NCBI RefSeq assembly: GCF_055900595.2
Contig: NZ_JBVWEU010000005.1
Direction: 5' to 3' (one strand)
Length of the DNA stretch: 40,586 nucleotides
Source: a plasmid
Both the position numbers and the translations under genes were made by a program. Shown here piece after piece: positions 18,599-37,749 of the stretch. Under the pieces are notes generated by a model. The model had not been told where the DNA came from and made no database searches. It saw only the letters and a program-made list of their open reading frames with translations. Position 1 is the first letter of the stretch, and each line of letters begins with the position of its first letter.

Positions 18599-18648
18599 AC
18601 CGGCCTCCTGCTTTATTCAAGTGGTTTACCAAACCTTTACGCATATTA

Positions 18649-18665
18649 TAGGACATATTGTCCTA
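18649..18665. promoter_or_regulatory. putative KorC-type operator TAGGACA-TAT-TGTCCTA
   Basis: Perfect 17-bp palindrome; same architecture as RK2 OC (TAGGGCATAATGCCCTA) with different half-site bases. Confidence 0.55.
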
Positions 18666-18675
18666 TAATTGCAAT

Positions 18676-18688
18676 TTTAGCAGCTAAA
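18676..18688. promoter_or_regulatory. KorB operator (OB) TTTAGCAGCTAAA
   Basis: 13-bp palindrome with central A. Confidence 0.75.
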
Positions 18689-18695
18689 ATCTGTT

Positions 18696-18956
18696 TCACA
18701 CCTTCCAGATTTTACCCAATCCTGCATATTCAACCAGAATAGCCCAGGCCGAAAAAGGAATGGGTGTATCCCCCCCAACCCAGCGCCTGACGGTTCGGCT
18801 GTCTTTCAGACCGGTCAGTGTGGCTGCTTTGCTTCCTGTTAGCTCTGCTATCTGCATCAAAGTACGAATTTCTTCTGGCGTAGGACAATCCCATCCCGCA
18901 CCAAAGGGTAAAAAACATTCTGACCTGATTAAGACAGGGTAGGGTTTAGTTTGCAT
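18696..18956 (-). CDS. korC: KorC-like small HTH repressor
   Basis: 86 aa, starts immediately after the klcB stop (klcA-klcB-korC order as in RK2 kilC); HTH-like segment LTGSKAATLTGLKDSRTVRRW. Confidence 0.5.
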   Translation of the reverse strand: MQTKPYPVLIRSECFLPFGAGWDCPTPEEIRTLMQIAELTGSKAATLTGLKDSRTVRRWVGGDTPIPFSAWAILVEYAGLGKIWKV

Positions 18957-20075
18957 TCACGATTCACCTGTTTTGTTGTCTTCCAGTAATTTCAGTTGAT
19001 CAATATTGTAAAAAGTACGAACGCAAGTAGGGTCAAAATCCACTACCTGAGTTCCGCGACGGTTGATTCGATAACGTATAGGCTTATCTTCATGCGCCTC
19101 CACACATCCTGAATCGTATATCGTAACGATTTTTACAATAGTGCCAATATTTTTAGCAAACACCGGATGATGCACACTCACGATTTCACATCGAGCACCA
19201 ACGTAAAATTCTTTATAACGCTGAACAGTAATCATCCGCTCTTTGTATTCTTTGGAACGCTCCTTTGCCAGTTGCTTGCGCCGTTCGCTTTCGGCCCGCA
19301 TAGTTTCTCTTTCAGCCTCCCGCTCTCTCTGCATAATAGCTGTAATGCGTTCCTGAGCTGCTACAGCCCATTTACGGGCGATAAATGCTTTAGAGGCGGG
19401 TAATAACGCCTCGACCCTAACAAAGCCGTCAGGGAGCGTTAGAGGCGTTCTATCAGGGGGGGGCGAAAGGGATTTTAACCAATCAGGCAAAGGCTCAGAT
19501 GCCAGCCTGTCACGGAAATCAGCAGAGATAAAAGCAGGTTTCTTTCTGGCGTCAATCAGGCTTTGAAATACGCGGGATACGTGTGCATCAACGGTTTCTC
19601 CAGGTCTGACTTCTGAAAGCCTAACAAAATGCGAACGATACCCTGTTTCGGATACAAAGGGTGCGCCTAAATCAACGGCATGAAACGAGGTGGAAAGATA
19701 CCCCATCATACATCCGGCTTCGACCTTAACCCTTGCTCGCATACCACTGAAACTTTCGATGATAAAATCACCGTGCTGACCCCACATAGGAACGCTACCG
19801 TCATCAGCACGGCAATATTCACTGATAACATGAGCCGCTTCATGTTCACCGGCATTACACCCAAAGAAGGTTTTACCGTTCATTTTCCAGATACAGGCTT
19901 CAAACCGGTACACAGCATCATGACGCTGTTGCAGATCACCGGTCATACAGGCTTTATTCAAATCAATTAGCGCTGAGTACGCCGCGTCCAGAATGCGATG
20001 GTCGTCCGGCAGCTGCTGCGCAATGGCTTCCATTTGCTGATCGCGAGAGTCATCGCCAGGATAATGTTTGGACAT
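18957..20075 (-). CDS. klcB: KlcB-like protein
   Basis: 372 aa; contains LPDGFVRVEALLPASKAFIARKW, the KorA/TrbA-type C-terminal motif; position after klcA. Confidence 0.6.
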   Translation of the reverse strand: MSKHYPGDDSRDQQMEAIAQQLPDDHRILDAAYSALIDLNKACMTGDLQQRHDAVYRFEACIWKMNGKTFFGCNAGEHEAAHVISEYCRADDGSVPMWGQHGDFIIESFSGMRARVKVEAGCMMGYLSTSFHAVDLGAPFVSETGYRSHFVRLSEVRPGETVDAHVSRVFQSLIDARKKPAFISADFRDRLASEPLPDWLKSLSPPPDRTPLTLPDGFVRVEALLPASKAFIARKWAVAAQERITAIMQREREAERETMRAESERRKQLAKERSKEYKERMITVQRYKEFYVGARCEIVSVHHPVFAKNIGTIVKIVTIYDSGCVEAHEDKPIRYRINRRGTQVVDFDPTCVRTFYNIDQLKLLEDNKTGES

Positions 20076-20122
20076 ATTAAACCCCTGAAAAATCCCCTGC
20101 AGAGCAGGGGATAAAGACTCAC

Positions 20123-20590
20123 TTAATCGATGGCCGCACGGAACTGCTCATATTCTTGATGCCCGCTGGCGTAATCAAACAGCTGATGATAATAAGCACT
20201 GCATCTTTCTGAAAATGGCAGATTAGAATTAGCAAGCTGGGCCAGCACAAAACTGGTTGCCACCATACCTGCAGCTTCTGCGCTTAACAAACCGTCAAAG
20301 TAATTACCCTGGACAGAAATACGGTAATGTTCACGGCTGTTTGGTGCCATAAAATAACCACCATTTGAAAGTTCATAAAAATCCCACTCACCACCATCGT
20401 AATGGGCTTCAATTTTATCCAGCGCACTACTTAAATATTGGCTTTTATTTTCAGGACTTAATTTACGCATCCACTTATAAGTGTGGTTTTCCACCAAACG
20501 CCAGTATTGGCCGAAGAATTTCGGCATAAACATCAGGCGTTCTTCATAATCTGTAAGTTTACGAGCAGTAACGATAACTTCATTATTCAT
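20123..20590 (-). CDS. klcA: KlcA/ArdB-family antirestriction protein
   Basis: 155 aa; position and size match KlcA downstream of oriV; putative OC in its promoter. Confidence 0.6.
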   Translation of the reverse strand: MNNEVIVTARKLTDYEERLMFMPKFFGQYWRLVENHTYKWMRKLSPENKSQYLSSALDKIEAHYDGGEWDFYELSNGGYFMAPNSREHYRISVQGNYFDGLLSAEAAGMVATSFVLAQLANSNLPFSERCSAYYHQLFDYASGHQEYEQFRAAID

Positions 20591-20643
20591 CGGAGTTCTC
20601 CGGTAATTGACCTGAGTGACTTACCCGGCCTTCACAAACATTA

Positions 20644-20660
20644 TAGGACATTTTGTCCTA
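20644..20660. promoter_or_regulatory. putative KorC-type operator TAGGACA-TTT-TGTCCTA
   Basis: Perfect 17-bp palindrome about 55 bp upstream of the klcA start. Confidence 0.55.
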
Positions 20661-20679
20661 TAATGTGAAGTGTTTTATT

Positions 20680-20886
20680 TTATTTCCCGACAAATTCTGG
20701 ATACAGCAACCACCCAATAACAATGATACATGCAATATCAAAAAATAGAGAACAGTATAAATAAATACCTTCTGCTTTAATAAATTTTGTGAAGTGTGAA
20801 TTAAACAAATCAGCACTTATATTCTCTTTGAGATCTTTATTCATTTTCTTGGCGTCAATCATCGCGTCAATTGACTTTATTAGCAA
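20680..20886 (-). CDS. small AT-rich hydrophobic ORF (possible membrane peptide)
   Basis: 68 aa, hydrophobic C-terminus, low GC; no convincing SD checked. Confidence 0.25.
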   Translation of the reverse strand: MLIKSIDAMIDAKKMNKDLKENISADLFNSHFTKFIKAEGIYLYCSLFFDIACIIVIGWLLYPEFVGK

Positions 20887-21366
20887 TCAAAATGGAACAT
20901 GGAGCCACCAATTTAGAACATTCGAAAAATGATCCAATTTCGCATAACGATTCTAAGACGATCCCTTTAAAGCCCTTCTTTCTGGCGTAAACCCTCCGGT
21001 TCTGTAGCGCATCAGTATTTTGAAGTGTGCTTGGTATCTCTAGCGAGTATCTATGCCCGGCAAAGGTACTTTGCCGAGAGCGAAGCGGCCTATGCTCGCG
21101 TAGCGAGTGAGTCATCTTTGGGGTGAAGACCGCTTGCGGTCGAGGGGCTTGCCCCTGGGGGGATGGGAGGCCGCTTGCGGCCGGGAGGGATTGAGAAGGG
21201 GGGTTTCCCCCCTTCGGGGGCGTCGTTAGACGCGGTTAAAAATAAGGTTAATTTTTTTGGTTAAAAGTGGTTAAAGGATCGGTTAAAAGATCGGTTAAAG
21301 ATCTGGTTAGAGGGGTGTGCAAAACTCAATTAAAGCCATGATTATTAAGGGGAAAAATATCCACAT

Positions 21367-21495
21367 GCGCCCCTCATATGTCATAAAGTAGCCCCTCAAG
21401 TGTCGTAATTCCGCCCCTCAAATATCATGATAGCGCCCTTCATATGTCATAATAGCGCCCCTCAAGTGTCACCTTTCCGCCCCTTAAATGTCGTA
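21367..21495. repeat. six 17-bp iterons at exact 22-bp spacing
   Basis: Copies of GCGCCCCTCAAGTGTCA-like sequence (reverse complement TGACACTTGAGGGGC, the RK2 iteron consensus) with CCCCTCA cores at 21370, 21392, 21414, 21436, 21458 and 21480. Confidence 0.85.
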
Positions 21496-21625
21496 TCTTT
21501 ACCGGGATATTAACAGACTTATCCACAAATTAAGGGGATAATTCTAACGTCTGGTTAAGCTCTATACGCCTAAACAAAATTTCGTGCGGGCTAAACTCGT
21601 CCTAAACAAAGAAGGGCGCAATAAA

Positions 21626-21673
21626 GCGCCCCTCAACTGTCATAAAAAAAATATGTGCCCCTCAAGTGTCACC
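21626..21673. repeat. two further iterons, the second overlapping the trfA stop codon
   Basis: gcgcccctcaactgtca (core 21629-21635) and gtgcccctcaagtgtca (core 21658-21664); the trfA stop (plus-strand tca at 21662-21664) sits inside the second core. Confidence 0.75.
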
Positions 21674-22540
21674 ATTCCTCGCTGCGGCATCGTTAGTTCG
21701 TTTGCAATGAATACGATCTTTATCTATCCAAGCACTATGAATTAACCCACTATCTTTAAGCTCAGCACATGCTTTATTAACCTGCTCTCGCCACTTTTTC
21801 AGGCGGTCGGATTCCGAGCCACACATCATCTTGAATGTATCTAATTTCATAGGATATGGCTCCCGGTGAGAACCAAAGTAATCAAAGAGGCGGCGAGCTG
21901 TAGGTGAAAGTTTACGGTATTTCTCCCACACAAACTTTGAATAGTGCTCACCTGCAAAAAGCAAAACCATCTCTTTATCAATGATGACTTCACATCTTGA
22001 CGACCGTTTCCCACGGTCAAGAACGCGAAAGCGACCAATCAATGAAACAGATTCCAGTTGACCGACACGCTCAGAAATAAATTGCATGGCTGTTGCCTGT
22101 AGGCGTGTTAGGCACTCCTCGGCCTTTTCTATATAACGACCATTATAAGACCAGCCTAGATCCTGGCAAAGTTCGTAAAACGTGAAGGTAATAGGTTCAC
22201 CCATTGGTTTCCTTTTGGCGTATTCAAGAACCTGCTGCCACACAAGTTCATCGTCATCAGCACGTAACTCAAGCCCGGTATAGGTGATCCGCACATCTTT
22301 ATTAATGTGGAAAATCTCTTTCTTCTGCAGTGCTTCACGGGGCTGACGTTTATTCTTGACAGTAAACAGAGCAGAACGAGCATAATCGTTAGGTAATGCC
22401 CGCATCGAATCCGGCCATGGTGCAATGTCAAATAGCGTCAGTTGCTTCTCTGTCTGCCCTTCATTCGCCATTCTGGAGCGCTGATCAAGCGCTGCCTTTT
22501 TTAGCTTTTCAAGTTCAGAATTATTATTGTCATTCTTCAT
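21662..22540 (-). CDS. trfA: TrfA replication initiator
   Basis: 292 aa; segment LSPTARRLFDYFGSHREPYP matches TrfA as I recall it; iterons immediately downstream. Confidence 0.85.
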   Translation of the reverse strand: MKNDNNNSELEKLKKAALDQRSRMANEGQTEKQLTLFDIAPWPDSMRALPNDYARSALFTVKNKRQPREALQKKEIFHINKDVRITYTGLELRADDDELVWQQVLEYAKRKPMGEPITFTFYELCQDLGWSYNGRYIEKAEECLTRLQATAMQFISERVGQLESVSLIGRFRVLDRGKRSSRCEVIIDKEMVLLFAGEHYSKFVWEKYRKLSPTARRLFDYFGSHREPYPMKLDTFKMMCGSESDRLKKWREQVNKACAELKDSGLIHSAWIDKDRIHCKRTNDAAARNGDT

Positions 22541-22614
22541 AAGTGCCTCACCGCTTTGAAGCGCATTGAGAAAAGGCCCTCATCGGGCCTTCCATTCTAT
22601 ACCATCTTGCCCCA

Positions 22615-22989
22615 TCAATCAGTTTTCTTACCTGCAACTGCGGAACTGCTTGCCGGGGATTTTATATTTAAATACTGAATATTCTCTGCAATGTAATCGA
22701 TGCCATACACTTTTTGGCCGTTTGATTCATACTGGGTGTTACGCATAGAACCTTCTACAAAGACCTGCGAGCCTTTTCCTAGGAACTTTGCAGCGTTTTC
22801 TGCAGCCTTACCCCATACCTTGATGCGGAAAAAGTCGGTATATTCCTTAACTTCACCGGTTTCCTGATCTTTATAGCTCCCGTTAACCGCTATATCGAAA
22901 ATTGCGATTGGTGTGCTTTTTGCTGTATACCGTAACTCTGTGTCTTTTGTTAGATTTCCGATAAACTGAAAACGATTAAGATTTTTCAT
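22615..22989 (-). CDS. ssb: single-stranded DNA-binding protein
   Basis: 124 aa OB-fold SSB-like sequence (FQFIGNLTKDTELRY...), upstream of trfA as in RK2. Confidence 0.8.
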   Translation of the reverse strand: MKNLNRFQFIGNLTKDTELRYTAKSTPIAIFDIAVNGSYKDQETGEVKEYTDFFRIKVWGKAAENAAKFLGKGSQVFVEGSMRNTQYESNGQKVYGIDYIAENIQYLNIKSPASSSAVAGKKTD

Positions 22990-23024
22990 ATGCAGTCTCG
23001 ATTTCTGTGACTAAGGAATACAGA

Positions 23025-23036
23025 GTTTAGCTAAAC
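23025..23036. promoter_or_regulatory. KorA operator (OA) GTTTAGCTAAAC
   Basis: Perfect 12-bp palindrome between divergent ssb-trfA and trbA. Confidence 0.8.
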
Positions 23037-23055
23037 AATTTAATTCGGTCAATAT

Positions 23056-23068
23056 TTTAGCCGCTAAA
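23056..23068. promoter_or_regulatory. KorB operator (OB) TTTAGCCGCTAAA
   Basis: Perfect 13-bp palindrome 20 bp from OA. Confidence 0.8.
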
Positions 23069-23147
23069 ATTTACATCGAGGCGTAAGCGTATCGTGTACA
23101 ACCTAATTTTTTTTACTAACATCCTCAGACTTCTTGAAGAAAGAGAC

Positions 23148-23498
23148 ATGACAAAGCAGGAACTATCCCAAAAAGCTGGGGTTTCAATCTCTTTTTTGTC
23201 GGACCTAACAAATGGAAAAGCGAACCCATCTTTAAGGGTGATGGAATCCATTGCTAATGCCCTCGATGTAGCCCTTCCCGTTCTCCTTGAAACAACTGAC
23301 CTTGATGAACACAGTCTTATGCTTATGGCTGATGGAAAACCTGTAAAAAGTCTCCCTCCCGGATATGTAAGAGTGTCCGTAATTCTTTCTGAACAGCAAG
23401 CCTTTCGGGTACGAATGTGGAGTGAACATACACGTCAGAAGTTAGAGCAAGAAGCCAAAGCAATGCTGGAGATCATGCAAGAAAAGAAAAACAGTTAA
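23148..23498 (+). CDS. trbA: TrbA-like repressor (XRE HTH plus KorA-type C-terminal domain)
   Basis: Track ORF starts at 23094; the ATG at 23148 (MTKQELSQKAGVSISFLSDL...) starts the HTH. C-terminal motif PPGYVRVSVILSEQQAFRVRMW. Confidence 0.7.
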   Translation: MTKQELSQKAGVSISFLSDLTNGKANPSLRVMESIANALDVALPVLLETTDLDEHSLMLMADGKPVKSLPPGYVRVSVILSEQQAFRVRMWSEHTRQKLEQEAKAMLEIMQEKKNS

Positions 23499-23532
23499 CG
23501 CCAAAAAGGAATGGGACTGCAGGGATGCAGAT

Positions 23533-23545
23533 TTTAGCCGCTAAA
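23533..23545. promoter_or_regulatory. KorB operator (OB) TTTAGCCGCTAAA in the trbB promoter region
   Basis: Perfect 13-bp palindrome between trbA and trbB. Confidence 0.8.
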
Positions 23546-23680
23546 AAACATCCCCTTTCCCGTCTTCGAACTACCAATAATTTCACTTTAATGTTTGCTT
23601 AACTATTGCCTGAAAACTTGTTTCGTTATATCGTTTGTCGTAATTCCCATTATAAACGCAGTAAAAATAAAGGATGAATT

Positions 23681-24637
23681 ATGGACACTGTAGATTCCGT
23701 CGATTTAAGAGCGATAGAAAAGCTCAAAAGGGACATGGGACGAAGCCTAATGGAAGCGTTAGAAGATCCTGAAACACTAGAAATAATGCTGAATCCAGAT
23801 GGTAAGTTATGGCGTGAAAAATTCGGTCAACCCATGTTCTGCATGGGAACTGTGCCTGTACAACGTTCAAAAACCATTATTCAAACTATCGCGGGCTTTC
23901 ACAAAAAGATTATCGATTCCAACTCGCCATTTCTTGAATGTGAACTCCCTATTGACGGTTCCCGTTTTGCTGGTCAACTGCCGCCACTGGTTGCAGGTCC
24001 AACCTTTGCTATTCGTAAGAAAGCCTCACGTATTTTCCTTCTGGATGAATATGTAGATAAAGGCGTAATGACCAGGGTGCAGGCTGATTTTATTTGTCGC
24101 GCAATTGCCGCTCATAAAAATATTTTAGTTATTGGTGGTACTGGTTCAGGGAAAACAACGCTGTTAAACGCCATCATTGCTGAAATAGTTCGTCAGTTTC
24201 CAGACGAGCGCATCTGCATTATCGAAGATACGGGCGAACTGCAGTGCGCCGCGCTGAATTTTGTTCAATATCACACCACCATTAATGTCACTATGACTGA
24301 CATTCTTCGTCTGATCCTGCGTATGCGACCTGACCGTATTTTCGTAGGCGAGACTCGCGGTCCAGAAGCTCTCGATATGCTTGACGCCTGGAACACCGGT
24401 CATGAGGGCGGCGCGGCCTCACTTCACGCCAATAACACACTTTCTGCTCTCACGCGTCTGCGTTCTTTAATCTCACGTAACCCCTTTGCTCCGCGAGAAA
24501 TTGAGCCAGTAATTGGCGAAGCGGTCAACGTGATCGTTCAGATATCTAAAACTTCTGAGGGTCGCCGGATTAAAGAAATTCGCGAGATTCAGGGTTATGA
24601 AAACGGGGAATATATTTCCCAACTCATTGCGGCTTAA
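23681..24637 (+). CDS. trbB: TrbB (VirB11-family secretion ATPase)
   Basis: 318 aa, Walker A GGTGSGKTT; SD AAGGA. Confidence 0.9.
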   Translation: MDTVDSVDLRAIEKLKRDMGRSLMEALEDPETLEIMLNPDGKLWREKFGQPMFCMGTVPVQRSKTIIQTIAGFHKKIIDSNSPFLECELPIDGSRFAGQLPPLVAGPTFAIRKKASRIFLLDEYVDKGVMTRVQADFICRAIAAHKNILVIGGTGSGKTTLLNAIIAEIVRQFPDERICIIEDTGELQCAALNFVQYHTTINVTMTDILRLILRMRPDRIFVGETRGPEALDMLDAWNTGHEGGAASLHANNTLSALTRLRSLISRNPFAPREIEPVIGEAVNVIVQISKTSEGRRIKEIREIQGYENGEYISQLIAA

Positions 24638-24750
24638 AACATGGAGGGCATATCTACTACACACAGCAACGAAACTCAGGCCATTGAGCAGGCCATAAAG
24701 CTCAACCTAATTCAAATCATTCCAGAACAACCTTTATAAGGGGTTATTTA

Positions 24751-25134
24751 ATGAAAACAGGTTTATTCCACTTCAATCTGAGCAAGCACGCCTTTATTGC
24801 ATTTTTAGGTGCCATGCTGTTCCTCATGGCAGCTGAACCTGCTCTGGCGTCAAACACATCAGGCGGTGGCTTGCCGTTCGATGACTGGATGACCAATATC
24901 CGTACTTCTATTACAGGACCATTTGCATTTACCGCTTCCATTATCGGCATTGTCGGTGCAGGTGCGATGTTGATCTTTGGCGGTGATATGAACGGATTCC
25001 TTCGCACTCTGATTTTCATCGTTCTTGTTCTTAGCTTCCTGGTTGCAGCACAAAACACTTTGTCTGCAATCACAGGGCAGGGTGCCGAACTGGTAGCAAT
25101 GCTGACTAATTCTAAAACTGGGGGAGCGGCATAA
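24751..25134 (+). CDS. trbC: TrbC pilin precursor (VirB2-like)
   Basis: 127 aa, signal sequence plus two hydrophobic segments; SD AAGGGG. Confidence 0.8.
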   Translation: MKTGLFHFNLSKHAFIAFLGAMLFLMAAEPALASNTSGGGLPFDDWMTNIRTSITGPFAFTASIIGIVGAGAMLIFGGDMNGFLRTLIFIVLVLSFLVAAQNTLSAITGQGAELVAMLTNSKTGGAA

Positions 25135-25136
25135 CC

Positions 25137-25463
25137 ATGGCATTACGCACGATCCCCATTCGTAGGGCGGCTTCAAGAACGAACCTCTTCATGGGCGGGG
25201 ACCGTGAATTGGTTATGTTTTCAATCCTACTGGCAGCGGTCCTTATCTTTATGTCACAAGACTGGATCGCTGTTGGTATAGGCATAGTGATGTGGGGGGG
25301 ATCACTTTTCCTGTTAAGGAAAATGGCTAAATCAGATCCGATGTTACGTCATGTTTATCTACGTAGCCTCAAATACAACCAGCCGTATTATGCGCCCCGT
25401 GCCACGCCGTTCCGCAAAAATACAGGAACCCAAGGCAAACGTTATGAAAGGGTGAAAAAATGA
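25137..25463 (+). CDS. trbD: TrbD (VirB3-like)
   Basis: 108 aa membrane protein, start 3 bp after the trbC stop. Confidence 0.8.
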   Translation: MALRTIPIRRAASRTNLFMGGDRELVMFSILLAAVLIFMSQDWIAVGIGIVMWGGSLFLLRKMAKSDPMLRHVYLRSLKYNQPYYAPRATPFRKNTGTQGKRYERVKK

Positions 25464-28707: not shown

Positions 28708-28722
28708 ATTCGGGGCCGAAAC

Positions 28723-29613: not shown

Positions 29614-29615
29614 TA

Positions 29616-30059: not shown

Positions 30060-30062
30060 AAG

Positions 30063-31457
30063 ATGGCAGAACAAGATAAAATGTCCCCCGACGCGTCTCC
30101 TGGCGTCGCAAACAAAACTGGTGTACGCCGCGTTAATAAAAGACCAATGTACATTGCTATTGGTGGCTTCGCTTTATTCTGCATTCTCGTGGCGTACATT
30201 GCCAATAAACGAGCCAACCAAGGCATGTCAAATACGGCAGAAACAACTATTCAGCGTGGGAGCAGCCGAGATACCTCGGCAATGGCAATGGACGTTATGG
30301 GAGGAAGTACCTCCGGCATTATTGAAGCCCCAACAGCACCGTCAGAAATTCCGACACAGGATAATAAAACCCAACAGAGCACGAATTATACATCGGTCCC
30401 CATTGTTCCAGTAGCTGATCCAGATCAGCCCCCCGTTCCGCCACAATCGGTAACGTCACGGTCAAACGATCCAGAAGCAGACCAGATTCGCCGCAATAAA
30501 ATGCGTGATTTTATTGAAGCTGTAAAAGCAAAAACAGAAGTCAATTTGCCTAACCAACTAGGACGCTCGAGTACTACAGGTAATACACCACAAACCCGCG
30601 ATGAAATGCTGCAAGAAATTGCTAACGTTCGCCGTCAGATGGAACAGAACAACGCTGGCGATGCAACTGCAAGTTACGACGCTCAGGTTCAGAGAATCCG
30701 GGCTTCAATGAATGGCGTCACAGATAGCAATAGCGATACAGGTATGCAATTGGCATCAGTGGGTGGCGTATCCGTTTCTCATAATGACATCAACCAGTTC
30801 GGTAAGAAAGGGCAGGGTGACAGGTGGTTACTGGATGAACAAATTTCAGCACCACATAGCCAATACGAACTTCGTGCAGGTTGGGTCATTCCTGGCGTCA
30901 TGATTAGTGGCATTAACTCGGATCTTCCAGGGCAGATTATTGGTCAGGTTGCTCAGGACGTTTATGACTCAGCAACAGGCAAATACCTTCTTATTCCTCA
31001 TGGAACTCGTGTGATAGGTACATATTCAAGTGATATTACCTATGGTCAGGAAGGGGTCATGATTGCCTGGCAACGTCTAGTGTTCCCAGATGGAAAAGCT
31101 CTTGATTTAGGTTCCATGCCGGGAGCAGACATGGCCGGTTACTCTGGTTTCCGAGATCAGGTTAATAACCATTACTTCCGCATTTTTGGCAATGCCTTAC
31201 TGCTATCTGGTATCACCGCGACAATTGCTTATTCTCAGGATCGTAACCAAAACAATAACAACTCGAATCAAGCTCCGAACATGAGCAGTGAAATGAGTGC
31301 AGCGCTGGGTCAGGTATTCGGCCAAGCTATTGCACAGGTTGTACAAAAAAACCTGAATATCTCACCTACGCTCGAAATTCGACCGGGTTATCGCTTCAAT
31401 ATAATGGTTACTAAAGACTTAGCATTCACAAAACCTTACCAAGCCTTTGATTACTAA
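30063..31457 (+). CDS. trbI: TrbI (VirB10-like)
   Basis: 464 aa, N-terminal TM segment, Pro-rich linker, conserved C-terminal domain. Confidence 0.85.
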   Translation: MAEQDKMSPDASPGVANKTGVRRVNKRPMYIAIGGFALFCILVAYIANKRANQGMSNTAETTIQRGSSRDTSAMAMDVMGGSTSGIIEAPTAPSEIPTQDNKTQQSTNYTSVPIVPVADPDQPPVPPQSVTSRSNDPEADQIRRNKMRDFIEAVKAKTEVNLPNQLGRSSTTGNTPQTRDEMLQEIANVRRQMEQNNAGDATASYDAQVQRIRASMNGVTDSNSDTGMQLASVGGVSVSHNDINQFGKKGQGDRWLLDEQISAPHSQYELRAGWVIPGVMISGINSDLPGQIIGQVAQDVYDSATGKYLLIPHGTRVIGTYSSDITYGQEGVMIAWQRLVFPDGKALDLGSMPGADMAGYSGFRDQVNNHYFRIFGNALLLSGITATIAYSQDRNQNNNNSNQAPNMSSEMSAALGQVFGQAIAQVVQKNLNISPTLEIRPGYRFNIMVTKDLAFTKPYQAFDY

Positions 31458-31469
31458 TAGGGGAAGACG

Positions 31470-32240
31470 ATGAATACACGTTTCGTTTTAGCCGCTAAAA
31501 AAGCGTTACTAGCTTCCTTCGTGGCGTCAATCATGGCCCTACCTGCGAAAGCTGGTATTCCTGTTATTGATGCTACTAATGTGGTGCAGACCACAATCAG
31601 CGCTGTCAATAACGTTCAGGCTGTGGCTAAACAGATCCAACAGTATCAGACGCAGTTGCAACAATATGAAAACATGCTGAGAAACACAGTCGCACCTGCG
31701 GCCTATATATGGGATCAGGCCAATTCAACTATCAACAAATTATTGCAGGCACAGGACACTCTTAATTACTACAAAAATCAGGCCGGGAGTCTTGACTCAT
31801 ATCTAAAACGTTATCAGGACATTAATTACTACCGTTCATCGCCATGCTTTAACAGTAATGTTGAATGCACTGCAGATGAAATTAGCGCACTACGTAAAGC
31901 TGAACAAAATAACTCTGAGGCTCGTAAAAAGGCCAATGACGCTGTTTTTAAGGTTCTCGATGAACAGCAAGAAACACTGCAAAGAGATGCAGATAACCTT
32001 GCTGACTTACAAACTCAAGTAACTGGAGCACAGGGGCAAATGGAAGCTATTCAGGCCGCTAACCAGCTTGCCAGTGCGCAAACAAACCAGTTACTGCAAA
32101 TCCGCTCGCTTCTAGTTGCCCAGCAAAACGCTGCAACTACACTGGCGCAGGCTCAGGCCGATAAAGAGGCCCAGCAAGCGGCTGCATCAGAAACTTTTAG
32201 GGCAGGGACTTATACCAAAAGCCCCGCTCAATCTTGGTAA
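31470..32240 (+). CDS. trbJ: TrbJ (VirB5-like)
   Basis: 256 aa, signal peptide, coiled-coil; codons 5-10 carry a KorB operator. Confidence 0.8.
   Translation: MNTRFVLAAKKALLASFVASIMALPAKAGIPVIDATNVVQTTISAVNNVQAVAKQIQQYQTQLQQYENMLRNTVAPAAYIWDQANSTINKLLQAQDTLNYYKNQAGSLDSYLKRYQDINYYRSSPCFNSNVECTADEISALRKAEQNNSEARKKANDAVFKVLDEQQETLQRDADNLADLQTQVTGAQGQMEAIQAANQLASAQTNQLLQIRSLLVAQQNAATTLAQAQADKEAQQAAASETFRAGTYTKSPAQSW
31487..31499. promoter_or_regulatory. KorB operator (OB) TTTAGCCGCTAAA inside the trbJ coding sequence
   Basis: Perfect 13-bp palindrome encoding part of the TrbJ signal peptide (FVLAAKK). Confidence 0.7.
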
Positions 32241-32252
32241 GGTGGTACTCCT

Positions 32253-32426
32253 ATGAAATATATCATTCCTCTCATTCTGTCGGCGTTTTTTATCACTGCT
32301 TGCGACCCAAAAACCGATCCCAACCAGGTTGATTGCAATAAGTCAGTATCAAAGATGACTGACCAGGAAAAAACGCAATGTGGTAAATCAGGCGAATTTA
32401 CAAAAAGCCCCGAAAAGAAATGGTGA
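32253..32426 (+). CDS. trbK: TrbK-like small lipoprotein (candidate entry-exclusion protein); below the ORF-track size cutoff
   Basis: Hand-translated 57-aa ORF MKYIIPLILSAFFITACDPKTD... with lipobox FITAC, between trbJ and trbL as in RP4. Confidence 0.55.
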   Translation: MKYIIPLILSAFFITACDPKTDPNQVDCNKSVSKMTDQEKTQCGKSGEFTKSPEKKW

Positions 32427-32430
32427 CAGA

Positions 32431-33975
32431 ATGAAATTCAGGCATCTAATTTATCCTTGCTTATCTGTGTTGCTGATATTAATCAGCACACAGGCACAGG
32501 CTGCGCCATTAGATAGTGCTGGGTTACTTGATGATATCCTTAAGCGCTTTGCAAATGTTGCCAGCACCTGGGCTGGAACCATACAAAATTACGCGACCTG
32601 GATATTTTGGTCATTAGCGGTAATTTCAATGGTATGGACATTCGCAATGATGGCAATGCAGGGCGAAGGATTATCGGCAGCTCTTGCGGAAGTAGTTCGT
32701 TTTTTTGCTGTGTTAGGTTTTTTCTTCTATCTGCTAAAAAACGGCCCGGCAATATCGGTAGATATTCAGGATTCATTACGTCAACTCGCGGCTAATGCTT
32801 CTGGTTTATCAAAATCATTCTCGCCTTCGGGCATTGTAGATATAGGGTTTGATATCGTATCAAGAGTCGTTGACCAGTCTTCTATTTGGTCCCCGGCAGA
32901 CTCCACTGTCGGCTTGATTTTAGCCGGAGTTATTCTATGCGTATTAGCACTTGTCGGTGTGAATATGCTTCTTCTGCTGATTACCGGCTGGATTTTAAGT
33001 TACGGCGGTATTTTCTTACTCGGTTTTGGGGGGTCTCGTTGGACTTCCGATATTGCCATTACATACTTCAAAACAGTTCTAGGAATTGCCCTGCAGCTGT
33101 TCACAATGGTTCTAATTGTTGGTATTGGAAAATCCTTCATAGACCAGTATTACCAGGCAATGGGCGATGACGCAGTACAAATGAAATCTATGTTTGTAAT
33201 GCTTGTAGCCTCAATTGTTCTTTTGGTTCTTGTTAATAAAGTTCCTCCTATGGTTGGCAGTATTGTAGGCGGTGCTTCAATGCAAGGCATTGGTGGCTTT
33301 GGTGCCGGTGCAATTATTGGGGCTGCAGCTGCAGCAGGAGCCGCAATAGCAGCAGCTGGCGCTGCTGCGGCAGCAGGTGCTGCAAATGCTGCCGGAGGTG
33401 CATCAGCACTTAAAGCGGCATTTGAATCGGCACAAGCAGCGATGGCCGAAGAGTCTAGTACTGGTAGTAAAGGCGGTTCAGGTGGAGGATTTGGCAGTGG
33501 GGAGGATACCGGTTCTGTAGATACTTCTGGAGGACAACCATCAGGCGGTTCCGGTGGTTCGTCTGCAGAGAACAGTACAGGTAGTTCCAGTGGAGGAAGC
33601 CAGGGCTTTGCTTCATCATTCTCACGAGCTGGCCGCATGGCTTCGCATATGGCGAATAGTTTGGCTAACGGCCTGGCTGCACGCAATGCAGCCAAGCATG
33701 ACTCAAAAGTCAGAGCGGCAAGAGACATCATTGCACAAACTCCAGGTGGAAAGCTCGCTTCTCAAATCCGTTCGCAAACTGTTGAACGTCAATCGAACAA
33801 CACAGAAGAATCTTTTGGCTACGGGAGCATAACAACAAGTAACAAGTTCAACGGCGACAGTCTTGGAGGGGAGGAGCAAACAACGACTCAAACAGAAAAT
33901 ACTGGTTCTATAGATACACAAACATCACAAAGTGGTGATGAATACGAACAATTTAAAAACAAGTCAAAGTTCTGA
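32431..33975 (+). CDS. trbL: TrbL (VirB6-like) with Gly/Ala/Ser-rich C-terminal tail
   Basis: Track ORF 32380..33975; start moved to the internal ATG at 32431 (MKFRHLIYPCLSVLL..., signal-like) to avoid overlap with trbK. Multiple TM segments. Confidence 0.8.
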   Translation: MKFRHLIYPCLSVLLILISTQAQAAPLDSAGLLDDILKRFANVASTWAGTIQNYATWIFWSLAVISMVWTFAMMAMQGEGLSAALAEVVRFFAVLGFFFYLLKNGPAISVDIQDSLRQLAANASGLSKSFSPSGIVDIGFDIVSRVVDQSSIWSPADSTVGLILAGVILCVLALVGVNMLLLLITGWILSYGGIFLLGFGGSRWTSDIAITYFKTVLGIALQLFTMVLIVGIGKSFIDQYYQAMGDDAVQMKSMFVMLVASIVLLVLVNKVPPMVGSIVGGASMQGIGGFGAGAIIGAAAAAGAAIAAAGAAAAAGAANAAGGASALKAAFESAQAAMAEESSTGSKGGSGGGFGSGEDTGSVDTSGGQPSGGSGGSSAENSTGSSSGGSQGFASSFSRAGRMASHMANSLANGLAARNAAKHDSKVRAARDIIAQTPGGKLASQIRSQTVERQSNNTEESFGYGSITTSNKFNGDSLGGEEQTTTQTENTGSIDTQTSQSGDEYEQFKNKSKF

Positions 33976-33985
33976 GGCTATTAAT

Positions 33986-34294
33986 ATGAAAAAATATCTA
34001 TCAGTTACATTGATGGCATTATCTATTAGTATTTACAGCATTCCAACAAAGGCGGCAGATCCATGCCAACCCGTATTATGCATGTGGGGATTGGTTGCCA
34101 CAGGTAGTGTCCAGGATGGTTGTTCGGGGAGTGTGAACAACTATTTCAGTCAAATCAGCTTCAAGCATGGAAAATTCAGCGCAAGTCGAACAGAGAAAAA
34201 AAGAAGAGGATGGCTAACTAATAATTGTCCATCAGCTTCACCTGCTTACGTAGATAAAATACAGAATAAATTTGGTCGTCTACGCTTTTTTTGA
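33986..34294 (+). CDS. small secreted Cys-containing protein (TrbM position)
   Basis: Track ORF 33932..34294; the internal ATG at 33986 starts a signal peptide MKKYLSVTLMALSISIYSIPTKA. Confidence 0.5.
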   Translation: MKKYLSVTLMALSISIYSIPTKAADPCQPVLCMWGLVATGSVQDGCSGSVNNYFSQISFKHGKFSASRTEKKRRGWLTNNCPSASPAYVDKIQNKFGRLRFF

Positions 34295-34309
34295 CAAAAG
34301 GGAAATAAT

Positions 34310-35083
34310 ATGCCGTATTTAGATATTCCACCGGCTCAGGTTGAACGTGTAGTTTGCTCAATTACTGCAGCGATAAAATATCAGGTTCCGGCTAACATCA
34401 TGTTAGCCATAGCTGAAAAAGAGGGTGGTCGTCCCGGACTTGAGAATAAAAACCGTAACTCAAACGGCACATATGATATAGGCCGTATGCAGTTTAATAC
34501 GGTTTATTTAAAGGATCTGGAAAAATACGGCATTACAGAAGAAGATGTAGCACAGCCAGGCTGTTATTCGTATGATTTGGCTGCGTGGCGTATACGCGGC
34601 CATATCAAAAATGATAAGGGAGATATCTGGACAAAAGCAGCAAATTATCATTCAAAAACGCCTCAATTTAACAAGGTATATCGTGCTGACCTGATCAGAA
34701 AAGCAGCTAAATGGCAGACCTGGATTGAAGCTCGCTTTAATACATTTGACACAACGAAACCTGCAGGAACGACTACTCCACTGCCTCAACAGGCGACGGT
34801 TGGAGTTACGCCAGAAGAAAGAGCAGGGAAAAACATTACACTGGTTACTAACCTTGCACAAAGCGACACACTCGCTACAGAACCGCCCAAAAATGACGGA
34901 ACAACAGTAACACCGACTACACCGAATCAACTTATTGGTTTTTCCGCTTCTGTAAAACAAATACCGGTTGAAAGCGTCGTAAAAGCTGACTATCAGCAGC
35001 CCACACAGCAACTACCGGGTCGTTATAACAAGGCTGCAGCTGATGCACTGGCTGCAGTATATGGAAATATCAAACTACGTTGA
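34310..35083 (+). CDS. trbN: lytic transglycosylase (TrbN/VirB1-like)
   Basis: 257 aa; transglycosylase-like segment AIAEKEGG...YDIGRMQFN; last gene of the trb block. Confidence 0.7.
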   Translation: MPYLDIPPAQVERVVCSITAAIKYQVPANIMLAIAEKEGGRPGLENKNRNSNGTYDIGRMQFNTVYLKDLEKYGITEEDVAQPGCYSYDLAAWRIRGHIKNDKGDIWTKAANYHSKTPQFNKVYRADLIRKAAKWQTWIEARFNTFDTTKPAGTTTPLPQQATVGVTPEERAGKNITLVTNLAQSDTLATEPPKNDGTTVTPTTPNQLIGFSASVKQIPVESVVKADYQQPTQQLPGRYNKAAADALAAVYGNIKLR

Positions 35084-35247
35084 TTTTTGCGTCTAGCGTC
35101 TAAAACATGCTAATGCTGGTCGTGTCGTTATGCCTCTTTTTTGCTTTGTTCTGGCGTATTAAGGGCGGGGAGGGACCATTCCTCACCCTTTAATAAAAGA
35201 AGTTAGAAACCAAAACATTTATACGTTTGTTATGCATTATTAAATAA

Positions 35248-35616
35248 TTAGGGCTTTTTTTTCAAAGTCGAAAGTGCGTAAACTATTCTTGATATAGATA
35301 ATATATCTTTTTTATCTAAACTGGATATATTCCAGACGATGAAATTATGAGCCTTAACAACTTCGTCATTTTGCTCATCATTTTTTAGCATTGCATCTTC
35401 CTTTATATTAACAATATCTCCATGTGCCAATTCATTTAAATCAACGCCTGTCACCATCGCAATTTTAATAATATCACTGAACTTAGGTTCAGTTTTACCG
35501 GACGCTATCCTGACCAGCGTACTCACGCTAATGCCAGTCTTCTCGGCCAGTTCTTCATAAGTCGAGTTTTCCAGAATTACATTCTTGATTCTTTCCGCTC
35601 TAATTTCTTTGCTCAT
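35248..35616 (-). CDS. XRE-family HTH protein
   Basis: 122 aa, HTH LAEKTGISVSTLVRIASGK; low-GC gene downstream of the recombinase. Confidence 0.55.
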   Translation of the reverse strand: MSKEIRAERIKNVILENSTYEELAEKTGISVSTLVRIASGKTEPKFSDIIKIAMVTGVDLNELAHGDIVNIKEDAMLKNDEQNDEVVKAHNFIVWNISSLDKKDILSISRIVYALSTLKKKP

Positions 35617-35647
35617 TTAATCTCTACCTTATATTATTTAAATTTAA

Positions 35648-36274
35648 TTACTTATTTTTATGTTTAGACCATACAGCTTTTACAAGACTAACGCTACATT
35701 CACAAAGTTTCGCTGTTTCCGCAATACTCGTCTTCCTTGAACGATACTCAATGATGCGTTTATGGAGCCGTAGATTTGCAGTTCGCCCCTGATACCGGCC
35801 TTGCCGTTTAGCCAGCTCAATACCCTCTTTCTGGCGTTTACGACGGTTTTCATACTCATCCCTTGCCAACTGTAGGGCAACTTTGAGTAACATATCCTGA
35901 ACAGATTCCAGAACGACCTTCGCGACACCGGATTGAGCGTTTGCCAGTTCGGTAAGATCCACAATACCGGGAATGGCGAGCTTCGCTCCCCGCTCTTTTA
36001 TAGAGTTTATTAACGCTAACGCACTATCGAGCGGTAAACGACTGATACGATCTATATGTTCTGCAATAACTACTTCGTCTAGCTGCAGATCATCAATCAT
36101 ACGTTGCAGTTCCGGGCGGTCAGCTCTTGCACCGGACGCCTTTTCTTTATAGATACCGGCAACATAGAATCCATTATTCCTGGCATTTTCAATAATTTCA
36201 TTTTGCCGGGTTAAATCTTGTTCGTCTGTACTAACCCGCAAATATATTCGCGCTATTTTCATATAATAAAACAC
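35648..36274 (-). CDS. serine recombinase (resolvase/invertase family)
   Basis: 208 aa; N-terminal catalytic motif YLRVSTDEQ, C-terminal HTH. Confidence 0.8.
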   Translation of the reverse strand: MFYYMKIARIYLRVSTDEQDLTRQNEIIENARNNGFYVAGIYKEKASGARADRPELQRMIDDLQLDEVVIAEHIDRISRLPLDSALALINSIKERGAKLAIPGIVDLTELANAQSGVAKVVLESVQDMLLKVALQLARDEYENRRKRQKEGIELAKRQGRYQGRTANLRLHKRIIEYRSRKTSIAETAKLCECSVSLVKAVWSKHKNK

Positions 36275-36345
36275 CCCAGCAAATCAATCACGCAATCATC
36301 TATCAATATTCTCTGGTTATGTCTCTTTCTCGCATTATCCATTCG

Positions 36346-36711
36346 TTATTTAATTATGTTTTCTGATGCATGGAGCAACCAGTAGAATATAATCATTCCC
36401 GCACCAGAAAACACTGCGGCGACAGCGAGCCACAAACGCTTATGCACTCCTTCTGATATGCCTGAGAAATATCCTGTATGGAGTAGCAGCAGCGACCATG
36501 ACAACCCTCCTGCCAGACCCAGCAGGGCAGGAGGGATATGCCACAGTTCATATTTCATAATAACAATACCTTCTGCCATCATCATGGACAGAGTGCAAAC
36601 AACAAAACAGTCCCATGAAAAAAAACGCCTGTCAGCAGCAAGAAAAATCACTGTCAGTGACATCACTGTCACTTGGGCCAGCAATAAAGGCCATAAAGAA
36701 ATAAAATTCAT
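36346..36711 (-). CDS. small integral membrane protein
   Basis: 121 aa, 3-4 hydrophobic helices; upstream of the recombinase on the same strand. Confidence 0.45.
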   Translation of the reverse strand: MNFISLWPLLLAQVTVMSLTVIFLAADRRFFSWDCFVVCTLSMMMAEGIVIMKYELWHIPPALLGLAGGLSWSLLLLHTGYFSGISEGVHKRLWLAVAAVFSGAGMIIFYWLLHASENIIK

Positions 36712-36771
36712 TTAATCTTCTCCTCAAGTGCCTTTAAAGTAAATGCGTAGGCTAGTTAATTAAGGTATACC

Positions 36772-36803
36772 CTAAAAAACCACTCGGTGAGTGGCAGGTT
36801 TTT
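36772..36803. terminator. bidirectional hairpin terminator
   Basis: CCACTC-GGT-GAGTGG stem-loop flanked by an A-run on one side and a T-run on the other. Confidence 0.45.
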
Positions 36804-37012
36804 TACTGCACTCACAGTGTAAACTGGCCAGGACAATCAAGGCAACCTTAAAAAGCCATCAATGTGATAAAAATGACATGACATCACTTTTATCACTTTT
36901 TAATGTGGTAGCATCATCTAATGTTGAATCATTAATTACTGTCATTTACTACAAGATTTACGCCATAAGAAAAAAAGCAAAACTCGTAATATTAGCTATC
37001 AGCAGCTACGAT

Positions 37013-37025
37013 TTTAGCCGCTAAA
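37013..37025. promoter_or_regulatory. KorB operator (OB) TTTAGCCGCTAAA
   Basis: Perfect 13-bp palindrome. Confidence 0.8.
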
Positions 37026-37039
37026 AGATTCTCTTACTT

Positions 37040-37663
37040 CTATTTATCTTTAAATTCATCCTGCAGCTTATCAATGCCTTTAGTTAAATCTTGACTTTTA
37101 CCATCTTTATAATCAGGCCATGGAATAAACATCTTTCCTGATTCCTGCATCATTGCAATTGATGTAGGACAGCGCCATTCAGATTCATCACCTTTTTTGT
37201 ATTTAAAAACAACCATTCCACGTTCACACTTAACATCGGGGGAAATGGACTGAATAAACATCGAATTAGCGGAACCATTCTCACCGGCATTGAACATTGC
37301 GCTGTCAAAAAATATAAATGCGAGAATTAATGAGAGAACGGCACAACCAGTATTCCAGAATTTCTTTCCACGTTCGGAATAAAATGAAAACATCATCACC
37401 ATTGCTAGAGATGAAATAAAACCTAACCATTGTGACGCAACTGAAAGTTGTGAAAGCGTTTTAACTGTATAACCACCTTCACCAGAAAGGAAAGACAAAA
37501 TAAACGGTGAAACAATAAAGCAAATTGCTGGAAAACAGGTAAATATCAGTTTGGCATTATTCTTGATTAACTGGCGCTCTCCAGAAGCCGCCGCGATCAT
37601 CGACTGCCACATGATTTTTACCAGCGTCAGCATCAGAACACTGCAGATCAACATATAAAGCAC
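37040..37663 (-). CDS. membrane protein with C-terminal soluble domain, under two putative OC operators
   Basis: 207 aa, about 4 TM helices then a charged C-terminal region; function unknown. Confidence 0.55.
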   Translation of the reverse strand: MLYMLICSVLMLTLVKIMWQSMIAAASGERQLIKNNAKLIFTCFPAICFIVSPFILSFLSGEGGYTVKTLSQLSVASQWLGFISSLAMVMMFSFYSERGKKFWNTGCAVLSLILAFIFFDSAMFNAGENGSANSMFIQSISPDVKCERGMVVFKYKKGDESEWRCPTSIAMMQESGKMFIPWPDYKDGKSQDLTKGIDKLQDEFKDK

Positions 37664-37706
37664 GGCTTACTCCCAATCCTTAGACGCTTTGAAAACCACT
37701 TGCAAA

Positions 37707-37723
37707 TAGGACAAAATGTCCTA
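37707..37723. promoter_or_regulatory. putative KorC-type operator TAGGACA-AAA-TGTCCTA
   Basis: Perfect 17-bp palindrome 44 bp upstream of the 207-aa gene. Confidence 0.55.
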
Positions 37724-37732
37724 TCATAGATG

Positions 37733-37749
37733 CAGGACATAATGTCCTA
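37733..37749. promoter_or_regulatory. putative KorC-type operator CAGGACA-TAA-TGTCCTA
   Basis: Second copy 10 bp from the first; tandem arrangement. Confidence 0.5.

Follow-up and report, generated by a model that had tools for sequence, protein, structure and literature searches.

Predicted KorC operators lie within three promoters of a clade II IncP-1 plasmid

We analyzed a set of 17-bp palindromes, together with the gene for the 86-amino-acid (aa) KorC-like protein that is predicted to bind them, in a plasmid sequence of 40,586 nucleotides (nt) (NCBI RefSeq assembly GCF_055900595.2, contig NZ_JBVWEU010000005.1). This complete stretch is called the window in the following. The window represents an IncP-1-type plasmid of about 41 kb which is 98.6–99.9% identical to conjugative plasmids of 40–42 kb from E. 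coli, Salmonella and Klebsiella, among them pCFSA664-2. It carries the backbone of this family, whose annotated core in the relatives comprises trfA, ssb, trbA–trbN, traC–traM, korA–incC–korB and kfrB/C, and in the near-identical plasmids the cluster klcA–klcB–(86 aa)–kleE is also part of the annotated IncP-1-type backbone. The plasmid belongs to the clade II IncP-1 plasmids of the Enterobacteriaceae and is of the pCFSA664-2 type. Hayakawa et al. (2022, PMC9499019) include pCFSA664-2, pDS1 and pMCR_1511 among the references of the IncP/P-1 tree, name pDS1 as clade II and count korC and klcA among 28 conserved genes.

The whole window was searched for exact copies of TAGGACANNNTGTCCTA (TAGGACA-N3-TGTCCTA), and 100 dinucleotide-preserving shuffles served as control. 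Three perfect 17-bp palindromes were found at 18649–18665, 20644–20660 and 37707–37723, and none is expected from the shuffles (mean 0.00, maximum 0). The initial annotation had counted four perfect palindromes. The motif is real and three copies are indeed perfect, but the fourth one at 37733–37749, CAGGACATAATGTCCTA, has a single mismatch in the outermost base (CAGGACA...) and retains a perfect core of 15 bp. When up to three mismatches were allowed no site beyond these four was present in the window, and the palindromes are restricted to three intergenic regions. The 17-bp inverted repeat with its 7-3-7 layout and the outer TAGG...CCTA is thus seen in the three perfect sites and, apart from the one mismatch, in the fourth; the same 7-3-7 geometry is found in IncP-1 alpha, beta, gamma, delta and epsilon, pKS208 and pDS1. 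The position of the sites relative to klcA, the kleE and zeta-toxin-family genes and the 86-aa open reading frame (ORF) at 18696–18956 on the minus strand had been described correctly. Two of the intergenic regions belong to a cluster which is read on the minus strand in the order klcA (20590–20123), klcB (20075–18957), 86-aa gene (18956–18696), kleE (18598–18275), 83-aa gene, zeta-toxin-family gene and korA. The features there are as follows:

20640–20669, minus strand: predicted klcA promoter with −35 TTCACA (20669–20664) and −10 TATAAT (20645–20640), 11/12 consensus
20644–20660: KorC operator of the klcA promoter, TAGGACATTTTGTCCTA, perfect palindrome (exact match)
20123–20590, minus strand: klcA, 155 aa, antirestriction protein (ORF; annotation in NZ_CP142409)
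18957–20075, minus strand: klcB, 372 aa (ORF; named klcB in relatives), the stop codon abuts the korC start codon
18696–18956, minus strand: korC, 86 aa, predicted repressor acting on the palindromes (homology, synteny, model)
18675–18689: KorB-type operator TTTTAGCAGCTAAAA, directly next to the −35 of the kleE promoter and at the spot of the KorA operator in IncP-1 alpha/beta
18645–18674, minus strand: predicted kleE promoter with −35 TTGCAA (18674–18669) and −10 TATAAT (18650–18645), consensus scan
18649–18665: KorC operator of the kleE promoter, TAGGACATATTGTCCTA, perfect palindrome (exact match)
17358–18598, minus strand: kleE (18598–18275), 83-aa gene (18199–17948) and zeta-toxin-family gene (17948–17358) (ORFs, NZ_CP142409 annotation, PHROG)

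Both the klcA promoter (20644) and the promoter of the kle operon (18649) therefore contain a palindrome, and the position within the promoter is the same. At klcA the palindrome fills the 18-nt spacer of TTCACA-18-TATAAT, and its final two bases also serve as bases 1 and 2 of the −10; at kleE it lies in the spacer of TTGCAA-18-TATAAT and again contributes the first two bases of the −10. The klcA layout recurs in the homologous promoters of 20 other plasmids, the kleE arrangement is repeated in NZ_CP142409, pMB3565_2, pMCR_1511 and pCFSA664-2, and altogether the operator-in-spacer geometry was observed at about 50 sites in 21 plasmids. At all three loci of the window a palindrome is situated between or overlaps the −35 and −10 elements according to the consensus scan, with predicted transcription starts, and the imperfect fourth site (3b) is located downstream of the −10. 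This geometry also bears on the possibility that the palindromes are RNA or DNA hairpins, i.e., terminators or replication or transfer signals, and not protein operators. The scan did flag a terminator-like element on the plus strand at 20638–20666, whose 13-bp stem is followed by a T-rich tail. However, the stems are AT-rich with loops of 3 nt, and the sites are always found between the −35 and −10 of outward-facing promoters. Moreover, both arms change together across plasmids while the outer TAGG/CCTA is kept, which fits a dimeric protein site overlapping the −10. We consider the hairpin explanation extremely improbable.

The 86-aa gene had been proposed as the likely, korC-like regulator of the palindromes, and this assignment is well supported by sequence identity, synteny and a confident model of a helix–turn–helix (HTH) protein. 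The protein is 54–56% identical to the KorC proteins of IncP-1 alpha/beta in alignments, and the match to RK2-type KorC has 55% identity over 93% of the length with an E of about 1e-17 to 1e-18. The gene occupies the korC slot of every IncP-1 subgroup examined, i.e., it terminates the klcA–klcB operon upstream of the kle genes in the order klcA–klcB–korC–kleE. An AlphaFold2 model with 21 homologues (predicted local distance difference test, pLDDT, 89) shows the HTH helices at residues 41–48 and 54–61, the recognition helix being R54-T-V-R-R-W-V-G61. We take the 86-aa gene to be a true KorC orthologue. NCBIfam, PADLOC and Pfam contain no useful KorC family; they returned a weak and unrelated VC1465 match from NCBIfam and a weak HTH_31 match from Pfam (E = 0.04). 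In a Foldseek search the model was most similar to the HTH domain of AcrIF24 (template modelling score, TM, 0.72), followed by Aca1 and C.Kpn2I, a restriction-modification controller protein, and a profile search against the PDB also matched AcrIF24 (E = 9e-8). The KorC family is homologous to the C-terminal Aca-like HTH domain of the anti-CRISPR protein AcrIF24 and to Aca1, and the plasmid kil-kor repressors are thereby linked with anti-CRISPR-associated autorepressors.

The third locus with its two sites contains the following features:

37700–37727, plus strand: predicted promoter of the 68-aa gene with −35 TTGCAA, 16-nt spacer and −10 TATCAT (consensus scan)
37707–37723: KorC operator 3a, TAGGACAAAATGTCCTA, perfect, within the spacer of the rightward promoter
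37733–37749: KorC operator 3b, CAGGACATAATGTCCTA, one mismatch, 6 nt past the −10 and over the expected start
37760–37785, plus strand: hairpin GATAGGGAGG-N6-CCTCCCTATC in the leader of the 68-aa gene, loop CAGCAA, perfect 10-bp stem
37817–38023, plus strand: 68-aa ORF, conserved gene behind the third KorC-type promoter (tblastn)
38098–39084, plus strand: DNA-binding protein of 328 aa with ribbon–helix–helix (RHH) and HTH domains (Pfam FitA-like RHH, E = 1.9e-5, and HTH_3)
37040–37663, minus strand: membrane-protein ORF of 207 aa, probably not the main target

These sites had been described as a tandem pair upstream of the 207-aa gene. In geometric terms this holds, but the sole operator-bearing sigma-70-like promoter faces the 68-aa ORF in the opposite direction, and a scan of 37664–37800 gave no comparable promoter on the minus strand. 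By tblastn the 68-aa ORF adjoins the operator also in NZ_CP142409 (97%), pMB3565_2 (68%) and pDS1 (67%). The left flank with the 207-aa ORF has a mosaic structure: NZ_CP142409 shares only its first ~100 nt, and its 3′ end matches a different position of pMB3565_2. Because the promoter points rightward, the synteny of the 68-aa ORF is conserved and the flank on the other side is mosaic, the conserved regulated gene of the third locus is most likely the 68-aa ORF and not the 207-aa gene. The 328-aa gene is possibly co-transcribed with the 68-aa gene; it is present in NZ_CP142409, replaced by a different gene in pMB3565_2 and absent from pDS1. For the 68-aa protein there is no family in Pfam, PHROG, PADLOC or NCBIfam. 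Operator 3b is perfect in NZ_CP142409, has the same imperfect form in pCFSA664-2 and is absent from pMB3565_2 and pDS1; since it is confined to the window and the former two plasmids it is a lineage-specific addition. The pDS1 counterpart of operator 3a, which precedes the 68-aa homologue, has switched to the TAGGTCT form specific to pDS1.

In order to compare regulators and operators we scanned 23 related loci for 7-3-7 palindromes and aligned the respective KorC proteins. The loci mentioned by label are L001 (NZ_CP142409, the 99.8%-identical relative), L002 (pDS1), L003 (pMB3565_2), L005 (pBS228), L006 (pOXA-48), L014 (a Paraburkholderia plasmid), L015 (pMCR_1511), L017 (a Variovorax plasmid), L021 (a P. 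bubulae plasmid), L022 (Tardibacter pHSL3), L023 (a B. contaminans plasmid) and L024 (pCFSA664-2); pBS228 serves as proxy for the RK2-type IncP-1 alpha plasmids. The half-sites and the first residues of the recognition helix (counted here from the residue preceding it) are:

pBS228 (IncP-1 alpha): TAGGGCA at three sites; DRTV
pAKD34 (IncP-1; KorC ~77% identical to alpha): TAGGGCA; DRTV
Variovorax plasmid L017 (IncP-1; KorC 72% identical to alpha): TAGGGCA; DRTV
pYKAM033: TAGGGCA; GRTV
pCNB (IncP-1 beta): TAGGGCA at the kleA promoter, hybrid TAGGACAtttTGCCCTA at the klcA promoter; DRTI
Xanthomonas plasmIII: the same hybrid as at the pCNB klcA promoter (TAGGACAtttTGCCCTA); DRTI
pQKH54 (IncP-1 gamma): TAGGACA at three sites; DRTL
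pKS208: TAGGACA at three sites; DRTL
pOXA-48 (IncL): TAGGACA at one site; GRTV
Window, pCFSA664-2, pMCR_1511 and pMB3565_2: TAGGACA; SRTV or SRTI
NZ_CP142409 and at least 10 other clade II plasmids: one site TAGGGCAtttTGTCCTA; SRTV
pDS1: TAGGTCT at three sites; SRQV
P. bubulae plasmid: TAGGGCT, and TAGGACT in a hybrid; GRQI
IncU-type module: TAGGCCA; TRTF
pKUN4843_2: TAGGCCA; SRTF
Neisseria conjugative plasmid: TAGGATA; GRAF
E. coli phage-plasmid: TAGGAAA; SRNV..N (SRNVRN)

The expectation that regulator and operator would co-vary in related plasmids was confirmed in so far as both change together throughout the family, but the choice between G and A is not tied to the recognition helix. In pDS1, for example, whose KorC is 65% identical and has the helix SRQV, all three homologous promoters including that of the 68-aa homologue carry TAGGTCT. 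KorC is the sole regulator common to all elements of this set, and the co-variation is strong evidence that KorC would read these sites. Together with the spacer geometry and the KorC orthology it supports the view that the palindromes are KorC-type operators. Several further DNA-binding proteins are encoded in the window, one of them directly downstream of the third operator locus, so that the 328-aa RHH-HTH protein, a 122-aa HTH protein (35248–35616), TrbA or KorA might be thought to bind the palindromes instead. Yet palindromes of the type TAGG-N9-CCTA occur in spacers beside KorC homologues in IncL, IncU, Neisseria, Xanthomonas and phage-plasmid backbones which are devoid of those proteins, the operators are retained in pMB3565_2 and pDS1 where the 328-aa gene is absent, and the window contains separate palindromes for KorA and for KorB. 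Binding by one of these other regulators is therefore very unlikely.

As noted initially, the RK2 operators have the same architecture and differ by GGGCA in place of GGACA: we find TAGGGCA-N3-TGCCCTA in pBS228 at the klcA, kleA and kleC promoters, i.e., a difference of one base per half-site, and the RK2 half-site TAGGGCA does not occur at the sites of the window, which have TAGGACA. From this difference a KorC with shifted recognition had been deduced, and this part of the proposal we do not uphold. TAGGACA is already present in pQKH54, pKS208 and pOXA-48, and the window operator is not new but identical to the operators of IncP-1 gamma, pKS208 and IncL. Since IncP-1 gamma and pKS208 use TAGGACA and IncP-1 beta has hybrids, the base at this position does not define the family. 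In IncP-1 beta a klcA promoter region of 45 nt with the hybrid of TAGGACA/TGCCCTA type, TAGGACAtttTGCCCTA, recurs without change in at least 52 plasmids of many genera. Within clade II the hybrid TAGGGCAtttTGTCCTA is found in at least 11 plasmids with a KorC at least 98.8% identical to that of the window, and further hybrid operators are present in Xanthomonas plasmIII and in the P. bubulae plasmid. The G and A forms of half-site position 5 even coexist within single plasmids. Sorted by helix, G is found with DRTV and A with DRTL and SRTV, while both bases occur with DRTI and with GRTV; a single recognition-helix residue setting G or A at position 5 was rejected, as the alignment showed no consistent correlate. 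As no helix residue correlates with G or A, both coexist in single plasmids and the hybrid klcA promoter region is identical in at least 52 plasmids, KorC probably tolerates either purine at position 5 and does not discriminate between them.

The stricter idea, namely that the KorC of the window binds GGACA exclusively and does not bind GGGCA, so that the plasmid would be insulated from RK2-type KorC, agrees with the A at position 5 in all perfect sites of the window, pCFSA664-2, pMCR_1511 and pMB3565_2, with the G in the sites of IncP-1 alpha, delta and epsilon and with the residue preceding the recognition helix, which is S53 here and D in alpha/beta. It is, however, difficult to reconcile with the A/G hybrids kept in at least 52 IncP-1 beta and at least 11 clade II plasmids, with the KorC proteins of IncP-1 gamma and pKS208, which have the alpha-like start D-R-T and yet use TAGGACA, and with the GRTV helix, which is paired with A in pOXA-48 and with G in pYKAM033. 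We regard such an exclusive specificity as unlikely. Similarly doubtful is a KorC specificity code at half-site positions 5–7 in which A for G in the present plasmid would be a preference switch brought about by residues outside the helix; if true, the switch would insulate clade II IncP-1 plasmids from a co-resident clade I KorC and provide orthogonal pairs of small repressors and operators.

Other substitutions accompany operator changes. A T-to-Q exchange at recognition-helix residue 3 occurs together with A-to-T at half-site position 7 in two separate lineages, pDS1 (L002 16450, 35421, 37424) and the P. bubulae plasmid (L021 2439, 2868, 4308), and V/I/L-to-F at residue 4 goes with C at position 5 in IncU and pKUN4843_2. 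These pairings make up a candidate specificity code of the family. The operator and helix change of pDS1 is a real candidate for a specificity switch. In NZ_CP142409 one arm of the klcA-promoter operator is mutated, TAGGACAAAAAGTCCTA (L001 30798, homologue of window 20644), and the sites of the third locus are reversed in quality, the one imperfect in the window being perfect and the other carrying a G; these differences from the window are natural polymorphism within one plasmid lineage. The fetched flanks of the KorC homologues of the Paraburkholderia plasmid (L014) and Tardibacter pHSL3 (L022) contain no TAGG..CCTA palindrome, nor could a palindrome be recognised in their promoter spacers, and in the B. 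contaminans plasmid a different palindrome, ATGCCT-N3-AGGCAT, occurs twice before the klcA leader (L023 2593, 2636). Because these three KorC loci lack such sites, the TAGG/CCTA rule is not universal. Full-text literature searches for the operator strings gave nothing relevant. The comparative table of operator variants and recognition-helix residues is the most reusable product of this analysis.

Taken together, the analysis directly shows the sites with their promoter geometry, the KorC orthology and the co-variation across plasmids, and the palindromes are very probably the OC operators of the plasmid's own KorC, located within three promoters and forming a circuit of known type. Binding and repression by KorC would follow by homology to the KorC proteins of RK2 and RA3. 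A dimer of the 86-aa protein, an XRE-type HTH protein, is predicted to bind each 17-bp site. Because the operator fills the spacer and its last two bases begin the −10, KorC positioned there and touching the start of the −10 would exclude RNA polymerase. Repression of the klcA promoter would reduce expression of klcA–klcB–korC and render korC autoregulatory. Repression of the kleE promoter, which has a KorB operator at its −35, would affect kleE and probably the 83-aa and zeta-toxin-family genes, and the rightward promoter of the 68-aa gene would be repressed as well, with the second, imperfect operator over the start in this lineage.

Some observations weigh against this picture or parts of it. 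Between klcA and klcB there is a terminator-like hairpin on the minus strand (20094–20110, CCCCTGC-TCT-GCAGGGG) followed by the T-run ATTTTT (20088–20093), and the consensus scan gave promoter-like hexamers within the 3′ end of klcA. By analogy with RA3 (PMC7414963), korC might be partly transcribed apart from the klcA promoter, and this would weaken the claim of autoregulation. The hairpin itself suggests attenuation between klcA and klcB–korC, recalling the klcA terminator of RA3. At the third locus, the assigned direction of control relies on a promoter with 9/12 consensus positions and on synteny. Finally, the persistence of hybrid operators means that they are not strongly deleterious; equal affinity does not follow, and the KorC of the window may prefer A quantitatively.

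A comparison with known KorC systems shows which parts of the circuit are shared. RP4 KorC controls the klcA, kleA and kleC promoters (as summarised in PMC12365149). Like RK2/RP4 (IncP-1 alpha), the window has the 17-bp palindrome of 7-3-7 layout with outer TAGG/CCTA, its position in the −35/−10 spacer, the klcA and kle promoters as targets and korC as last gene of the klcA operon, the KorC proteins being 54% identical. In contrast to RK2/RP4 it has A and not G at half-site position 5, lacks kleA and kleC, has no KorA operator at the klcA and kleE promoters but a KorB operator at the latter, and possesses an additional target promoter with tandem operators before the 68-aa gene, located between the trb end/resolvase genes and traC. 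The IncP-1 gamma plasmid pQKH54 and the plasmid pKS208 share the sequence TAGGACA-N3-TGTCCTA with the window, in three copies each at the kli, klcA and kle promoters, and also the operon order; their KorC is ~50% identical with DRTL where the window has SRTV, and their promoters, unlike those of the window, in all cases retain KorA operators as well as the canonical leader. The nearest diverged relative is pDS1 (IncP-1 eta, clade II). It has the same three loci including the 68-aa promoter, the same backbone and a KorC with 65% identity, but each of the three loci carries TAGGTCT-N3-AGACCTA, and T55 is replaced by Q.

More distant is RA3 (IncU), whose homologous KorC (~37% identical, tblastn) also controls klcA and other backbone modules by palindromic operators in promoters (PMC7414963). 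The operator there reads TAGGCCA-N3-TGGCCTA, korC possesses a weak promoter of its own, and the targets include the replication and transfer modules; KorC of RA3 is described as a global and potent repressor of orf02p, klcAp and promoters of these modules (PMC7414963). In pOXA-48 (IncL) korC is essential for plasmid maintenance (PMC12365149, PMC12361523), and for the orf24-korC promoter one KorC site in the −35/−10 spacer has been predicted with the IncL/M consensus from Ludwiczak et al. 2013 (PMC12365149). The sole TAGG..CCTA palindrome which we found before this operon (L006 7399) is TAGGACAAAATGTCCTA and lies likewise between the −35 and −10; it is identical to the window operator. Differences are that pOXA-48 has one site only, a KorC with ~42% identity and a klcA without a preceding site. 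Circuits of this type, with this operator architecture and even with this exact operator sequence, are thus already known from other plasmid groups. Specific to the clade are the missing KorA operators at KorC promoters, the KorB operator at the kleE promoter, the conserved 68-aa member of the regulon and its duplicated operator. The gains are accordingly incremental: the KorA co-operator of RK2 is missing here, and an uncharacterised 68-aa gene is part of the conserved regulon. The ~41-kb clade II IncP-1 plasmids and their larger relatives (pMCR_1511, pHNFP671) spread among E. coli, Salmonella and Klebsiella with mcr-1 and other resistance genes as cargo, and the map of the KorC regulon indicates which promoters would be silenced at steady state and likely derepressed upon entry into a new cell.

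Concerning the other Kor proteins, ten palindromes of the KorB operator type, TTTTAGCNGCTAAAA, are present in the window, the central base being variable (10856, 13254, 14948, 17246, 18675, 23055, 23532, 31486, 37012, 39095). Perfect KorA operators (GTTTAGCTAAAC) are found only at 17215 and 23025 and are away from the KorC promoters, and no KorA operator lies beside the klcA or kleE promoter in the window. A KorA operator precedes most of the KorC-controlled promoters in IncP-1 alpha, beta, gamma, delta and epsilon. Downstream of the kleE promoter, the 83-aa gene (PHROG 21003, E = 5e-43) and the zeta-toxin-family P-loop gene (17358–18199, minus strand) replace kleF of other IncP-1 plasmids. 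They are probably co-transcribed with kleE and may constitute a toxin–antitoxin-like pair under KorC/KorB control.

Behind the KorC-type promoters of nearly all sampled groups we observed a conserved leader of ~45 nt. In the window only klcA carries it:

20588–20634, minus strand: conserved 47-nt klcA leader TGAAGGCCGGGTAAGTCACTCAGGTCAATTACCGGAGAACTCCGATG, extending to the start codon

The 34 distinct copies share 20 invariant columns with the consensus GAAGGCCGGGCAnnTCGCCCAGGTCAAnTACCGGAGAAnnTCCGATG (also written GAAGGCCGGGCAnnTCGCCCAGGUCAAnUACCGGAGAAnnUCCGAUG). A 5′ stem–loop and a small hairpin around the Shine–Dalgarno sequence are predicted; the conservation is mostly on the sequence level with one covarying base pair. 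The leader is found in the IncP-1 plasmids of the alpha, beta and gamma groups, pAKD34, L017, pKS208, pYKAM033 and clade II as well as in IncU-type, pKUN4843-type, Xanthomonas, Xylella, Pseudomonas and Tardibacter plasmids, and it precedes unrelated genes (klcA, kleA, kleC, kliA/C, a DUF905 gene and an orf02-type gene). The klcA leader did not match an Rfam family and no mention of the leader strings was found in the searchable literature. This leader may merit its own study more than the operators do. In pMB3565_2 (L003 35154) and pMCR_1511 (L015 17918) an extra DUF905 gene upstream of klcA has its own promoter–operator–leader cassette, which suggests that the cassette is duplicated as the KorC regulon gains genes.

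The 68-aa gene has a different leader of 103 nt with a folding energy of −33.3 kcal/mol (z = −4.1 against shuffles), and its 10-bp hairpin is kept in NZ_CP142409, pMB3565_2 and pCFSA664-2. A function as terminator was rejected as there is no T-run; the hairpin could be an mRNA-stabilising element or the site of another protein. The 207-aa protein on the other side of the third locus had no match in NCBIfam or PADLOC. It shows a weak similarity (21% over 191 aa, E = 2e-7) to a hypothetical gene beyond trbP in the RP4-like pBS228 (L005 40717–41265, upf30.5/upf31.0 region); Upf31 of pBP136 modulates Kor regulons (PMC11997246). Lastly, the Rfam search detected a full-length traJ-II RNA (RF01760, 99.9 bits) at 11259–11361 on the minus strand upstream of traJ. 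The adjoining box GAAAGCCGGG at 11359–11368 resembles the start of the klcA-type leader.

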